A stretch of 64,000 nt of DNA, taken from positions 3,782,001-3,846,000 of the forward strand of contig CM030335.1 in the NCBI GenBank assembly GCA_017654855.1. Reading direction: 5' to 3'. This document shows, piece by piece, positions 13,725 through 17,358 of this stretch (positions are counted from its first letter, which is position 1; every line of letters begins with the position of its first letter). Position numbers and translations under genes: made by a program. Below the pieces are notes generated by a model that was given only the letters and a program-made list of their open reading frames with translations, did not search any database and had not been told where the DNA came from. Source of the stretch: Podospora anserina (Eukaryota).

Positions 13725-14102
13725 CTAAAATGCCAAGTCTGGATCAAACTCTGTAGTACCATCACGCTTTTTGCTTCTCTTGAAGGCAAGGTCCGGGTCA
13801 AATTCGGTAGTCCCATCACGGCGATTCTTCTTGAAGGCAAGGTCTGGGTCAAACTCCGTTGTCCCATCGCGCTTTTCCTTTCTGAACGCTAGGTCAGGAT
13901 CGAACTCGGTAGTCCCATCACGACGATCAATTTCGACAGGCGGAGTGAGCATCACGGCTCGGCCTGATGCAGAGATGCCTCTGTCAACAACTGCAACCTC
14001 AGGAAAGCGACATTCCCTTTGGGGCAAGTACTTACGTGGAACCATTGGTGATGCTGCTGCCACCGAGATGAGCAACGCGGCGAGGAGATTTGATGATTTC
14101 AT
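13725..14102 (-). CDS. Kex2-processed repeat protein / fungal RiPP (dikaritin-type) precursor peptide with 4 copies of core DGTTEFDPDLAF
   Basis: Signal peptide MKSSNLLAALLISVAAASP, followed by four identical 12-aa units each preceded by RR or KR and separated by basic spacers (RKEKR, KKNRR, KRSKKR). There is a probable in-frame 72-nt intron at 13964..14035, giving about 101 aa spliced. The gene is adjacent to two DUF3328 genes. Confidence 0.9.
   Translation of the reverse strand: MKSSNLLAALLISVAAASPMVPRKYLPQRECRFPEVAVVDRGISASGRAVMLTPPVEIDRRDGTTEFDPDLAFRKEKRDGTTEFDPDLAFKKNRRDGTTEFDPDLAFKRSKKRDGTTEFDPDLAF
13728..13919 (-). repeat. Coding tandem repeat: four 36-nt core units (13884-13919, 13833-13868, 13782-13817, 13728-13763)
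   Basis: The units encode an identical peptide and differ only at synonymous positions. Spacers are 15-18 nt. Confidence 0.95.
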
Positions 14103-14843
14103 GTCGAATAGGTAAAACCGTGGATGTAAGTAAGTATGCGCTGGAGTATCGGTAGTTGCAGAGTCTTCAGCAGCTCAACATGAAGACGGGAATACGGATG
14201 GTGGAGTCTATATACCGGTCGACCTGGACAGTTAGCATAGCCGCCTCTCAAACGCAGTCATGAGGCCTGAGTCATGGAGGCTGTGCGATACTCGCCGAGT
14301 TGCCGACTGGTTGCTCCTGTGTAGGTTTCTTGCCCAGTTCCCGGCTTTCCCACGTACGTTAGGCTCCCAATTACATACATCACACCTATAGTACCCGTAT
14401 GGTACTCGGGGACTGTCATCATCGGCGCGGCACAGCGCACAGGATGTAACGAATATGGCCATGAATCGGAGCAAACGAGACACCACGAAGGGAAGGAGAA
14501 AACTTGTGCCTCACTTGATATCGAGGTAGCATCGACAGTGGCGGGTAAGATGCCTCACTATTGGCTACCAGGACCACCACGATAGGGCTCGTAAGTTGCC
14601 CCCGACACAACAGATCCTACATGTGAAACCTAGGCAGTTCCAACAACACAAATTGTCAACCATTGACAAGCAGATCCAACGGGCCGATTGCTGCTTGGCA
14701 GTTAGAAATGAGACAATTCCTCAGAGGTTGGTCATGATGTTGCAGGCGGGTTCCATTCGCCACTCTTCACTCCCCTTCAACCTCATTCTCATAACCTGTG
14801 AAAGTTGTAGGCTCTACCATTCTCCAGCTATCAAACCCAAACA

Positions 14844-15726
14844 ATGTCCACCGACAAGCACGAACAACGCCCTTTTCTCGCTGACGACAGTGAAGAGATC
14901 CGGAGTGCCGGGTATTCACGTCACCCGATTATTAGCCAAAGAACTCTACTTTTGGCATCCGCGATCAGTAATGTGGTTCTTCTCGTGATCTCTGCTCTTC
15001 TTAGCGGGACAGTCTTTTCTGTCCTCGGTCACGCCCAGAAGAAAGCTCAGTTACCCGACCCATACTGTACGTTTTGCTTCTCTTTCTATTGTTCCCCTTG
15101 CACTTGACATTGACGATTGGTTACTCTCCCCCTCGCAGCTCCCGCGAACTCCATCGTTGAATTCGAGTATCGAGGCGTTATTCGCAATGACTCCCGCTTT
15201 ATCGGGCGCCCAACGCAGGAATGGGACAAGTCGATGCACGACCTCATGGCTGGGACTTTGATCAGAATCTCACATGAGGAACTCCAGTTGGCCGGGACGG
15301 ACTCAATTCCACTTAGAGATGGCGGCTATGCTGCTGGCTTGGGTGTGGCACACAACCTCCACTGTGTCAAGAAGATAAAACAGTTCCTATATCGAGAACA
15401 CCTTTACCCAGACCTGGATACAGGTAGTCAAAGGTTTGAAGACCTTCAAACGCATGCGGGTATGTTGCTGTACTTTCTTTCCTACCTACATGAATGGAGG
15501 CGAGTAGTGACTTATTGCGATAGATCATTGTCTTGATTTCATCCGTCAAGGCATCATGTGCCATCTAGATTACTCGCTGTACACAGTGTACTGGGGAGAG
15601 CGAAAAGACATCCCAACACATCATGATCCGCCAGTGCAAAAGTGTGTGAACTGGGAGAAACTTCATAATTGGATGCAAGAAAGATCGGCCAACACAGATA
15701 TGCTGGTACGGCCTTGGACAGAATAG
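14844..15726 (+). CDS. DUF3328 / UstYa-family oxidase (RiPP tailoring or macrocyclising enzyme) 1
   Basis: Spliced model 14844-15066, 15139-15459, 15524-15726 gives 248 aa. It has an N-terminal TM helix, PYSPA, two HxxHC motifs (HNLHC and HADHC), and IRQGIMCHLD and CVNWEKLHNW. Confidence 0.92.
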
Positions 15727-16286
15727 ACTTAGATCTGGGGAATCACATACAAAACAAATCTATCTGCAGACTATTCTTTTTACCTGCAAATTGTCAAACT
15801 TTTGGGTGTTGCTAGTGTCCCAGGTAGCTCAGGGGTTTGAAGACAGCACTTCCGCAGCCATTGTTTGATGACCAGATGACGCGTCTCAGTTCTGTCTGCC
15901 GGATGAACCGCGAATTGGGGGCTGTGACATGTACTGATATAGTGGTCATGCAAAACACTTGGACTGTGCCCGACCACGGCGTTAAGGATCGATGTTGGTT
16001 GCCTGGTTTAGATAGCGAGAAAGCCAATCACACCACGGGAGTCAGGGCGGGAAGGGACCGCTCGGCGAGGGCCGGAAAGGGGAAGGAGTAAGATGTTGCA
16101 GATCGCTCATCTGTTGCTGGTTACATCAGGACGTGTTGGTGATGGGTGACTTGCTCAGATGCGATTGGAAAGGCGGCCCCATTATGCAGATAAATAAACT
16201 TTTCTTGTCTCGTTGACTAAGGTAGGTACTCGAGCTGTTTCCGACACACATTATCAACCTACTTACAACCAGTCGACCACCTGAAG

Positions 16287-17358
16287 ATGGCTTCACAAGA
16301 TGAGCAAGATCTATTTATTGCCAAAGGCTTTGATTCGGAAGACGACCTGAAATATGCATCACGGCCAAAACAACATCCCAAAACCCATCTCATCATATTC
16401 ATTTTCCAAATTTTGTTTTTTCTGCTCAATATCACCCTGTTCATGACTACCAAGGCATCCAATACAGACTGCACATCCTGTGGTGCGTTGAATCAGAACG
16501 TTTATCACAGCCCTTATTGTGAGTTGCTACCTTATCTACCCATCCGCGAGAAGAGCCCTTCAGAGAGCTAACCTGATGGGAAATTTGGAAGCCCCTGCAC
16601 ACTCAGCAATACGGTATAAGGTCTCCCAAGACAAGTATGAAGAGGGCCCAAGCCCATTTTCAGGAGTGCCTCGCCTCGAGCTGGATGAAGCCTGGTCAAA
16701 GTTGCTACGCTGTACGTTGGACGTCCCCACCTTGATTGCTTCCACTGATGTGTGTGTCAAGCCTCGATGATTCGATTATCGGCGGACGAAATGAGAAAGA
16801 TGAACAAAACCTCTGTGACGCTCAAAGATGGATCTGGATATGTTGGATACCTTGAGGCAATTCACATGCTACATTGCGTGGTAAGTCGCTTTCCTCGGAT
16901 TCATGTGCCGTTGTTTTAGGTATCATCATGCTGAAAGTCTTAGAAACGAATGCACCAAGCCCAATATCCCGAACACTACCCCAAGCTCCAGGCAGAAGAT
17001 GCCTTTTCGACCCATCATTGGGGTAGGTTTCCGTTTCAAGCTGGCCGGAAACATACACTTATCATACTAACTTCGTCGACTCCTGTTTCAAGATCATTGC
17101 CTCGAAGTATTGCGTAAGGGAATCATGTGCAACGCCGATACCACAATAAACACGTATTTGTGGCAAAGGGACTCGCATGGTAAGTTGATGATAAAAGGGA
17201 ATAGGACAGGACCAAGAAAATGCACCGACTGGGACAAACTGCAAGAGTGGGCGGAAGAAAGGACAATATATGGGAGTGACAGGGATCGGTTTCTTGAGAG
17301 TCTAGTAAGCCCCTCTGAGCACGGAGGGGGTTTAGGGCCCCTTGAACTTGGTACGTAG
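16287..17358 (+). CDS. DUF3328 / UstYa-family oxidase 2
   Basis: Spliced model 16287-16518, 16592-16711, 16762-16880, 16944-17022, 17093-17358 gives 271 aa. It has a TM helix, PYSPA, LDEAWSKLL, two HxxHC motifs (HMLHC and HWDHC), and LRKGIMCNADTT and CTDWDKLQEWA. Confidence 0.92.

Follow-up and report, generated by a model that had tools for sequence, protein, structure and literature searches.

A locus in the 64,000-nucleotide stretch of Podospora anserina DNA analysed here (the window) is real, expressed and uncharacterised, and it is of the already known dikaritin-type RiPP kind. It is probably best described as a five-gene, UstYa-dependent ribosomal peptide cluster (Table 1), in which a repeat precursor gene adjoins two DUF3328 (UstYa) genes and this trio is flanked by genes for a flavin monooxygenase and a seven-helix (7TM) Fung_rhodopsin protein. 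Both flanking genes are kept beside the precursor in an unrelated fungus, represented by a Xylariales-like metagenome locus (L001). The initial annotation had recognised the precursor and the two DUF3328 genes, which stand, but it overlooked the monooxygenase gene, the 7TM gene and the wide conservation of the core. This core, DGTTEFDPDLAF, is unusually conserved, acidic and free of Tyr.

Table 1. Features of the cluster, in positions of the window
Feature	Position	Strand	Basis
Group-A FAD-dependent monooxygenase, 432 aa	exons 12268-13122 + 11766-12209	-	PF01494, splicing
Precursor CDS, 101 aa	exons 14036-14102 + 13725-13963	-	ORF, hydropathy, splicing
Precursor in-frame intron, 72 nt, GTAAGT..CATCAG	13964-14035	-	contigs of runs X1 and X12 (2 of 4), canonical borders
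Precursor 5' UTR intron, 150 nt	14208-14357	-	joint in contig of X1 (1 of 4 runs)
Divergent promoter and 5' UTR region, precursor/UstYa1	14103..14843	.	contigs of X1 and X3
UstYa1 5' UTR intron	14727-14810	+	intron borders
UstYa1, DUF3328/UstYa, 248 aa, 3 coding exons	14844-15066, 15139-15459, 15524-15726	+	PF11807, splicing
UstYa2, DUF3328/UstYa, 271 aa, 5 exons	16287-16518, 16592-16711, 16762-16880, 16944-17022, 17093-17358	+	PF11807, splicing
Seven-helix Fung_rhodopsin protein (PF20684), 366 aa, 7 exons	18133..19593	+	Pfam, hydropathy, splicing

The precursor contains four exact DGTTEFDPDLAF units (13884-13919, 13833-13868, 13782-13817 and 13728-13763), which sit behind RR, KR, RR and KR, respectively, with the stop codon directly after the last one. 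Four identical units split in this way place it among the Kex2-processed repeat proteins (KEPs; at least three repeats split by KR or RR), and its N-terminus, with hydrophobic residues 6-17 after the basic K2, is signal-like by hydropathy. The small secreted ORF of the initial annotation was thus correct in its four 12-mers and their dibasic sites; the annotation overlooked the in-frame intron, so that the unspliced ORF (13725..14102, minus strand) encodes 125 aa instead of 101. The same splice is annotated in P0002, and PODANS_4_4500 (P0112) of P. anserina S mat+ is identical to the spliced 101-aa product. The 36-nt unit copies differ pairwise by 4-9 nt, and 11 of their 36 nucleotide columns vary; because all 11 changes are synonymous, selection on the peptide, rather than chance or recent duplication, maintains the repeat. 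The linear unit has a computed monoisotopic mass of 1326.56 Da. In the ESM Atlas, the predicted precursor model is disordered (pLDDT 0.25) and no match at or above 0.9 was found; an MF_alpha cluster lies among the nearest rows by protein-language features, at 0.83, which is below the level that counts.

Transcription was assessed by mapping contigs from four public runs, presumed to be RNA, onto the window. Exons of all five genes are joined at GT..AG borders in these contigs, and the precursor gene, whose transcription the initial annotation had proposed to check, is transcribed and spliced. The UstYa1 introns (15067-15138 and 15460-15523) and the first three UstYa2 introns are spliced out in contigs of X1 and X3, while the fourth UstYa2 intron (17023-17092) is taken from the gene model and from annotated 271-aa orthologs, which show 3-6 residue differences. 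The monooxygenase intron (12210-12267) is removed in all four runs, as are five of the six 7TM introns, the sixth being removed in three. Between the divergent genes, whose start codons lie 742 bases apart on opposite strands with UstYa2 as the next gene, the X1 contig extends to about 14459 from the precursor side and the X3 contig begins at 14407 on the UstYa1 side. Neither the contig gaps at 13302-13568, 15972-16238 and 17574-17840 nor the absence of UstYa2 from the contigs of X10 and X12 was counted as evidence. Contig depths (in X3, 1823 for the precursor piece versus 4-81 for neighbouring genes) were not used for ranking. Five 8-mers occur in at least three of four promoters, compared with a shuffle mean of 1.0 and maximum of 4, which is too weak for naming a motif, and no 9- or 10-base word is common to the cluster promoters.

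When all ORFs of at least 35 aa across the 64 kb were compared with L001, those matching it all fell within 11769-19590. A Pfam search of the ORFs at 8980-11775 gave no match. An aspartyl protease gene at 19978-21695, whose product could trim single-Arg sites, was left outside the cluster because L001 has no counterpart. Among window ORFs of at least 95 aa, no tyrosinase or methyltransferase was found.

The two genes transcribed divergently from the precursor are DUF3328 genes, as the initial annotation had proposed. In a Pfam search that it had named in advance as a check, exons of both exceed the PF11807 cut-off of 25 bits (42.6 and 54.1 bits for UstYa1, 53.2 for the last exon of UstYa2), with two short UstYa2 exons alone scoring 17.4 and 22.7. 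Its reading that each spliced product has a transmembrane anchor and two HxxHC motifs also holds: the hydrophobic segment spans residues 35-53 in both proteins by Kyte-Doolittle hydropathy, and the motifs are HNLHC and HADHC in UstYa1 and HMLHC and HWDHC in UstYa2. A six-frame scan of genomic DNA reveals the first motif only in each gene, the second being split by an intron, just as had been anticipated. Across 19 aligned UstYa1- and UstYa2-type proteins, H146, H149, C150, H180, H183, C184, C194 and C222 are invariant, the last two being cysteines beyond the HxxHC motifs; these eight residues, all intact in UstYa1 and UstYa2, are candidates for a metal site or disulfides. The two proteins are paralogous (33% identity, E 2e-29). 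The gene called on a Logan contig of 1134 bases (P0102) is identical to UstYa1 and QC762_404496 differs from it by one residue, while no solved-structure relative of the UstYa1 or UstYa2 orthologs was found by sequence.

Precursor-UstYa neighbours recur in other fungi, which the initial annotation had suggested searching. Precursor, UstYa1 and UstYa2 have consecutive accessions in all five other Podospora species listed. L001, a single locus from one metagenome scan, holds a four-gene block of precursor, UstYa2-type oxidase, group-A monooxygenase and 7TM Fung_rhodopsin protein, in which the oxidase gene lies about 1.3 kb from a two-unit precursor, in divergent orientation, and is followed by the other two. 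No second UstYa gene lies within 10 kb, which shows that UstYa1 can be missing from the gene set. Outside Podospora and L001, where sharing of a contig was judged from equal contig sizes, precursor and UstYa ortholog occupy the same contig in four of six cases (Xylaria grammica, Astrocystis sublimbata, Paecilomyces variotii No. 5 and one 11,706-base Logan contig), and the precursor and its best UstYa ortholog occupy different contigs in Triangularia verruculosa and Poronia punctata. The pair is therefore kept in other lineages.

These two separations, and likewise the Tyr-free core, would suit a precursor that is an unmodified Kex2-processed repeat protein yielding linear peptides, with the neighbouring enzymes acting on other substrates and their adjacency a by-product of local synteny. 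In a 2020 survey, 78% of KEP genes have no nearby DUF3328 gene (PMC7329392), which makes linear peptides common among KEPs. However, the head-to-head order with UstYa is kept from Sordariales to Xylariales while all other flanking genes differ, and same-contig cases extend to Eurotiales. Furthermore, we know of no housekeeping substrate for UstYa enzymes. We therefore regard unmodified linear peptides as highly improbable.

The unit R-DGTTEFD-[P/A]-D-x-x-[F/Y/L] occurs in 21 short secreted proteins (16 with names) belonging to 15 species that span Sordariomycetes, Eurotiomycetes and Dothideomycetes, and 45 of 58 matches in a profile search resemble family members. The residues that never change in it are acidic or carry a hydroxyl group (D, T, T, E, D, D). 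The Podospora unit has two Phe and neither Tyr nor Trp; in the wider family of 112 units, Phe is found in 98, Tyr in 19 and Trp in 9. A single R, not KR or RR, precedes many first units and all Cercospora-type units; at such sites Kex2 could not by itself release the exact 12-mer. The preservation of nine residues in three fungal classes is more suggestive of a signalling peptide or a recognition sequence than of the usual core of a natural product. The motif and gene ids are absent from searchable paper text, and no such text was found tying them to a compound, in keeping with the earlier view that the locus is uncharacterised; members of the family, for example from Cytospora, Pseudocercospora or Paecilomyces, may nevertheless figure in Table S2 of PMC7329392 and in the tables of PMC6339444.

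In a set of 65 units, position 7 is D in 62, position 8 is P or A in 61 and position 9 is D in 64, so that this stretch hardly changes, whereas positions 10-12 vary (F/A/L/Y/G/I, then A/G/F/V/L/I/M, then F/Y/L/G), with an aromatic residue at position 12 in 53. This pattern would be expected if the invariant R-DGTTEFD-P-D were a handle that is bound by UstYa and later removed, leaving as product only positions 10-12, perhaps with the following Lys. Such an arrangement has parallels in the conserved flanks around the four-residue core of ustiloxin and phomopsin repeats, with their EDYXI motif (PMC6339444), and in the report that RiPP recognition sites are usually more conserved than cores (PMC12048977). 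We nevertheless consider it unlikely. The cluster has no conserved peptidase able to strip nine residues, and a tripeptide whose key positions hold Leu, Ala or Gly would offer little for cross-linking. In addition, the last unit of many proteins stops at position 12 and residue 1 directly follows a basic site, so the whole 12-mer appears to be the released unit.

Under the dikaritin-type reading, the precursor would enter the ER, the Golgi protease Kex2 would cleave after RR or KR to free the units, and trimming peptidases would take off the basic linker residues. DUF3328 proteins are described as membrane-anchored, lumenal, O2-dependent binuclear-copper enzymes with an HxxHC(x)nHxxHC signature (PMC12435403), and UstYa1 and UstYa2 could accordingly hydroxylate, cross-link or desaturate the unit by oxidising its C-H bonds. 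The flavin monooxygenase might contribute a later oxidation step, and the 7TM protein might act as an exporter, as a sensor or in self-protection. Such a pathway would end in a small, acidic, oxidised peptide that may be macrocyclic; that it is modified or macrocyclic is what we infer. A JACS paper of 2025 reportedly presents a copper-dependent DUF3328 macrocyclase. Several observations weigh against the dikaritin-type reading, namely the Tyr- and Trp-free unit, the split contigs in two of six cases and the single-Arg sites, as do the presence of one UstYa gene rather than two within 10 kb in L001, the lack of a signal peptide or transmembrane segment in the monooxygenase and the lack of a tyrosinase or methyltransferase gene among window ORFs of at least 95 aa.

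The monooxygenase matches FAD_binding_3 and has a GxGxxG N-terminus. Its second exon scores 47 bits against PF01494 and its first 21.1, just below the cut-off of 22, while the whole L001 ortholog, at 55-60% identity, scores 58.1. Among solved structures, its closest relatives are salicylate hydroxylase 6bz5 (6.9e-39), TropB, SorC and AfoD. Because hydropathy indicates no signal peptide and no transmembrane segment, the enzyme would reside in another compartment than the precursor.

Comparison with characterised systems places the locus within a familiar architecture. In the 2020 survey, 1758 precursor genes lie close to a DUF3328 gene (PMC7329392); such neighbours are overrepresented around KEP genes, and DUF3328 genes are reported as required for ustiloxin, asperipin-2a, phomopsin and epichloecyclin (PMC7329392, PMC10540207). 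Like the Podospora cluster, whose precursor has a signal-like N-terminus, those for ustiloxin (Aspergillus flavus and Ustilaginoidea virens; UstA, UstYa, UstYb) and phomopsin (PhomA and five UstYa homologs) combine a signal peptide, tandem Kex2-flanked units and at least two PF11807 genes (PMC7329392). Their cores (YAIG/YVIG and YVIP) carry a Tyr-Ile ether and their pathways a tyrosinase, whereas the Podospora unit has 12 residues, is acidic and lacks Tyr, a residue typical but not universal in dikaritin cores. The ustiloxin cluster includes a P450, flavin-containing monooxygenases, a PLP enzyme and a methyltransferase (PMC12048977), in place of which Podospora has the group-A monooxygenase and the 7TM protein. 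The survey reports Tyr in 65.6% of repeats from KEPs with DUF3328 nearby, and Tyr or Trp as the cross-linked residues in ustiloxin, phomopsin and asperipin-2a (PMC7329392). Epichloecyclin of Epichloe festucae likewise comes from a compact repeat-precursor and DUF3328 cluster of four genes (gigA, the DUF3328 gene gigB, the SET methyltransferase gene gigC and kexB), and loss of the DUF3328 gene abolishes the cyclic peptides (PMC10540207); its INFKIPYT-type cores contain Tyr and Lys, and a methyltransferase and a kexin of its own stand in place of the monooxygenase and the 7TM protein.

The clusters for asperipin-2a (AprA/AprY) and victorin (VicA with UstYa homologs) are also small, with one or a few DUF3328 enzymes doing all oxidative tailoring of the KEP core. 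The asperipin-2a core is FYYTGY and that of victorin is GLKLAF, the latter also Tyr-free and ending, like the Podospora unit, in LAF. These cores differ from the Podospora unit in sequence, length and charge. The cyclochlorotine hydroxylase CctR resembles UstYa1 and UstYa2 in its DUF3328 domain, HxxHC(x)nHxxHC signature, N-terminal transmembrane helix (predicted in the Podospora proteins) and extra conserved cysteines, and is reported to be an O2-dependent, disulfide-linked homodimer with a binuclear copper centre (PMC12435403). CctR, however, acts on a non-ribosomal cyclic peptide, unlike UstYa1 and UstYa2, whose proposed substrate is ribosomal.

Few UstYa-dependent fungal peptides have known structures, compared with well over a thousand candidate clusters in surveys. 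The cluster stands out among them for a core that is almost identical in three classes of filamentous ascomycetes, for the acidity of that core and its lack of the tyrosine of known cross-links, for a fixed helper set of flavin monooxygenase and 7TM protein, and for its transcription in P. anserina, a non-pathogenic genetic model with routine knock-outs. It offers a direct route to further chemistry of the newly recognised binuclear-copper DUF3328 enzymes, and it lets one ask whether some "toxin-type" clusters make conserved signals.

One exon of the 7TM gene scores 31.8 bits against PF20684 (cut-off 27), and the spliced 366-aa product shows seven hydrophobic segments by hydropathy. Its gene lies beside the precursor in both Podospora and L001 (55-78% identity per exon), and a fixed receptor would account for the conservation of the unit across three classes more readily than an arms-race metabolite would. 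Both points would accord with a conserved, lightly modified, hormone-like peptide sensed by the adjacent Pth11-type 7TM protein, that is, a ligand-receptor cassette rather than a toxin cluster. The precursor also resembles alpha-factor-type pheromone precursors, which belong to the KEPs (PMC7329392), and other unmodified KEPs in its signal-like N-terminus and its identical units behind KR or RR. Yet the survey reports no DUF3328 gene near 100% of putative alpha-mating-factor KEPs and 98.6% of putative fungal-pheromone KEPs (PMC7329392), whereas the Podospora-type precursor keeps its DUF3328 neighbour across orders. The 7TM-precursor synteny is, moreover, known from two lineages, and the receptor role is putative. 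These fungi have many PF20684 proteins, some of them encoded in metabolite clusters and without a receptor role known to us. A hormone-receptor cassette of this kind is, in our view, very doubtful. We also find it quite unlikely that R-DGTTEFD-P-D-x-x-F is a secreted peptide of ancient origin, common to at least three Pezizomycotina classes, that undergoes Tyr-free maturation by UstYa and acts as a conserved signal through the co-inherited 7TM protein. The UstYa enzymes would then carry out C-H oxidation or cross-linking at Thr, Phe or acidic residues, for example, and the peptide, if this were true, would be without precedent among dikaritin-type RiPPs in having a hormone-like role and a receptor of its own.

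The repeat-peptide locus is real and expressed. It is probably a UstYa-dependent peptide cluster that has yet to be characterised, as the initial annotation, which called it dikaritin-type, had proposed; both the observation and its reading hold, and the published text searched ties neither the motif nor the gene identifiers to a compound. The locus comprises a transcribed precursor of the Kex2-processed repeat protein (KEP) type, two intact DUF3328 genes (UstYa1 and UstYa2), a flavoenzyme and a 7TM protein.

Features of the window and of L001, a Xylariales-like metagenome locus with a related cluster; joints are exon joints seen in contigs of four sequencing runs
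Feature	Position	Strand	Basis or remark
Amidohydrolase	2-1466	+	Pfam
GH10 xylanase	4223-5513	+	Pfam
Terpene synthase (family 2), at least two exons	7323-8596 (Pfam map: 7732-8596)	+	Pfam
Group-A flavin monooxygenase	11766-13122	-	Pfam
Intron, monooxygenase	12210-12267		joint in 4/4 runs
Precursor	13725-14102	-	window gene map
Intron, precursor CDS	13964-14035		joint in 2/4 runs
Intron, precursor 5' UTR	14208-14357		joint in 1/4 runs
Intron, UstYa1 5' UTR	14727-14810		joint in 1/4 runs
UstYa1	14844-15066, 15139-15459, 15524-15726	+	248 aa, spliced model
Introns, UstYa1 coding (both)	15067-15138, 15460-15523		joints in 2/4 runs
UstYa2	16287-16518, 16592-16711, 16762-16880, 16944-17022, 17093-17358	+	271 aa, spliced model
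Introns, UstYa2 first three	16519-16591, 16712-16761, 16881-16943		joints in 2/4 runs
7TM Fung_rhodopsin protein	18133-19593	+	Pfam
Introns, 7TM gene, five	within 18289-19273		joints in 4/4 runs
Intron, 7TM gene, sixth	19041-19095		joint in 3/4 runs
Aspartyl protease	19978-21695	+	Pfam; directly after 7TM gene
DUF1264	21768-22616	-	Pfam
HET (heterokaryon incompatibility) domain ORF, 716 aa	31708-33855	-	Pfam
NRPS and ornithine monooxygenase	34071-52698	-	Pfam
L001 UstYa gene, diverging from precursor	8615-7530	-
L001 two-unit precursor	~9880-10120	+
L001 monooxygenase, intron-less	12055-13329	+
L001 Fung_rhodopsin gene	13937-15190	+

Left unspliced, the precursor ORF encodes 125 aa with a hydrophobic N-terminus, and the four identical Kex2-flanked 12-mers first noticed in it are confirmed: exact copies of DGTTEFDPDLAF stand behind RR, KR, RR and KR in turn, the fourth abutting the stop codon. 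The ORF is open throughout but is not a single coding exon. Its coding intron is in frame, hence the single open frame seen initially; once spliced, the protein is 101 aa long and matches PODANS_4_4500 of Podospora anserina S mat+ residue for residue, which puts the window on P. anserina chromosome 4 or in a near-identical strain. For the linear 12-mer the calculated monoisotopic mass is 1326.5615 Da ([M+2H]2+ 664.288). At the DNA level Tandem Repeats Finder reports only 74-82% matches across the array, and any two of the four 36-nt copies differ at 4-9 nucleotides. The 11 columns that vary do so without changing an amino acid (ten at third codon positions, one at a Leu first position), so the identity of the four units is kept by selection on the peptide; neither chance nor recent duplication accounts for it.

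The peptide belongs to a family that spans three fungal classes. A word-indexed search with the precursor gave 577 candidates, from which came 21 short proteins of 68-145 aa. Sixteen of these are named, covering 15 species of Sordariomycetes (Podospora, Triangularia, Xylaria, Astrocystis, Poronia, Cytospora), Eurotiomycetes (Aspergillus ellipticus and two Paecilomyces species) and Dothideomycetes (Septoria, Pseudocercospora, Cercospora), with lineage checked for four species and established taxonomy followed for the others. Among 65 units chosen by a pattern fixing positions 1-6, so that only positions 7-12 were free to vary, D fills position 7 in 62 and position 9 in 64, while position 8 holds P or A in 61; the last three positions, 10-12, are variable, with F, Y or L at position 12 in 64. 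An R directly precedes every unit among those displayed. Searching 1.84 billion representative proteins with a profile gave 58 matches at E <= 1e-3, 31 of them at E <= 1e-10. Of the 58, 45 measure 150 aa or less and contain at least two RDG units; another five are short and contain no more than one, and the remaining eight, at 204-1274 aa, are probably unrelated. Over 112 units the pattern reads R-D-G-[T/S/A]-T-E-F-D-[P/A]-D-x-x-hydrophobic-K; 98 of these units contain Phe, 19 Tyr and 9 Trp. Many units lie behind a single Arg, as do all those of Cercospora-type proteins, where an RR site sits upstream of a spacer; Kex2 alone does not define the unit in those proteins, which counts against the pathway favoured below. 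Diverged branches (database proteins P0054, P0060, P0086, P0094 and others) keep the R-D-G..T..D.D frame with the remainder changed, their units ending for example in LMILK, LAVL or IWLWK and one branch being Trp-rich, and they offer natural variants for structure-activity comparison. Every named database member of the family is labelled 'hypothetical' or 'uncharacterized'.

Such deep conservation is unusual for a KEP core and likewise counts against that pathway; surveys call KEP cores highly diverse (PMC7329392). Tyr is absent from DGTTEFDPDLAF, in which the residues held constant are D, G, T, T, E, F, D, P and D. These nine invariant residues might serve as a recognition handle, the product arising from the variable C-terminal part only, a reading that we consider unlikely.

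Once spliced, UstYa1 and UstYa2 each carry one hydrophobic segment (residues 35-53) and two HxxHC motifs, in keeping with the TM anchor and paired motifs described for them initially. All their introns have GT..AG borders. A phase-1 intron interrupts the second motif of each gene, and when the unspliced window is scanned in six frames only the first motif of each comes up; the second is indeed hidden by an intron, in line with the initial remark. In an exon-by-exon scan with Pfam PF11807 (UstYa; gathering score 25 bits), the UstYa1 exons score 42.6 and 54.1 bits and the last UstYa2 exon 53.2 bits, which places both neighbours in the proposed family. The two are paralogs (33% identical, E 2e-29). 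Their Podospora pseudocomata counterparts are of equal length and differ at one residue (UstYa1, QC762_404496) and six (UstYa2, QC762_404494), and the UstYa1 model is identical to a 248-aa gene call on a 1134-base Logan contig. Across 19 aligned relatives of the UstYa1 and UstYa2 types, the two HxxHC motifs never vary, nor do two other cysteines. By sequence, their orthologs have no relative of solved structure.

Transcript evidence comes from the contigs of four runs, each of a separate study, whose RNA nature is a guess, none being recorded as RNA. Their exon joints fall exactly at canonical intron borders, which is what spliced mRNA gives, and removal of the precursor's coding intron in half of the runs answers the question of its transcription. 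The fourth UstYa2 intron is drawn from the gene model and 271-aa orthologs rather than from run contigs. At 14407-14459, an X1 contig reaching from the precursor side to ~14459 shares about 50 bases with an X3 contig that starts on the UstYa1 side at 14407. The divergent transcripts, each with a 5' UTR intron, may thus overlap head to head, only a hint since the contigs are strandless. Position 12900 in the monooxygenase gene is T in all four runs and C in the window, a difference between strains.

L001, the only metagenome locus found, lies on an 85-kb fungal contig, and its precursor resembles that of Poronia. When all window ORFs of at least 35 aa were compared with it, matches were confined to ORFs within 11769-19590: the monooxygenase (55-60% identity), the precursor, the UstYa2 exons (58-74%), the 7TM exons (55-78%) and the UstYa1 exons, which hit the same L001 gene as UstYa2 but reach no more than 33-45%. 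The conserved set is therefore the monooxygenase, the precursor, a UstYa2-type oxidase and the 7TM protein. UstYa1 is an extra paralog in Podospora; its own orthologs are common in Xylariales. The remaining L001 flanks, which include an RNA polymerase I A49 subunit gene, are unrelated. The aspartyl protease could trim units behind a single Arg; its gene is absent from L001. The peptide might instead act as a conserved signal that the 7TM protein senses, a reading that we regard as improbable.

Linkage extends beyond L001. Precursor, UstYa1 and UstYa2 have consecutive accessions in all five other Podospora species listed, and precursor and UstYa ortholog lie on contigs of the same size in Xylaria grammica (569,172), Astrocystis sublimbata (296,260) and Paecilomyces variotii No. 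5 (124,012), with a further match in size on a Logan contig (11,706). In Triangularia verruculosa and Poronia punctata the precursor and best UstYa ortholog are on contigs of different size, and this separation in two species counts against the pathway, as does a monooxygenase with neither signal peptide nor TM segment. A further rival is a linear peptide whose neighbouring genes are unrelated to it, a reading to which we give very little weight.

We favour an oxidative pathway. According to the survey text, DUF3328 proteins are required for cyclising ustiloxin, asperipin-2a and phomopsin cores (PMC7329392), and one is described as required for epichloecyclins (PMC10540207). The account of CctR presents the family as TM-anchored, lumenal, homodimeric and O2-dependent, with the binuclear copper site of CctR formed by HxxHC(x)nHxxHC, and credits the family with hydroxylation, halogenation, macrocyclisation and isomerisation (PMC12435403). 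Among proteins of solved structure, the L001 monooxygenase ortholog comes closest to salicylate hydroxylase, TropB, SorC and AfoD, and the monooxygenase is a flavoenzyme of the phenol-hydroxylase type. The precursor would enter the ER and be cut by Kex2 after KR/RR; the unit would be oxidised by UstYa2 and, in Podospora, by UstYa1; basic linkers would be removed, a flavin-dependent oxidation would act at a later stage, and the 7TM protein may function in export, protection or sensing. Taken as a whole, this pathway seems to us likely.

A large number of clusters built in this way is already known; this one is notable for a core kept across three classes, acidic and without Tyr, for its fixed helper set and for a host that is a tractable model fungus. 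Fragments of the peptide motif were found in no relevant paper in published full text, a search outside which lie supplementary catalogues that may list the family, and the same holds for its gene, protein and UniProt identifiers. Among the papers listed, links between Podospora anserina and DUF3328, RiPP or ustiloxin amount to incidental mentions. The conserved KEP motifs named in the text of Le Marquer et al. exclude the R-DGTTEFD unit (PMC6339444).

The terpene synthase gene, ~3 kb upstream of the monooxygenase, is probably outside it because it has no counterpart in L001. Long open frames of 464, 333 and 701 aa (23080-25453 + and 27298-29400 +) have no Pfam match at E 1e-3. The stretches 34071-49367 (-) and 51079-52698 (-) hold two giant ORFs (2944 and 2097 aa) with condensation, AMP-binding and PP-binding domains, and an L-ornithine N5-monooxygenase downstream of them; this group resembles an NRPS cluster for a hydroxamate siderophore and is distinct from the peptide cluster.
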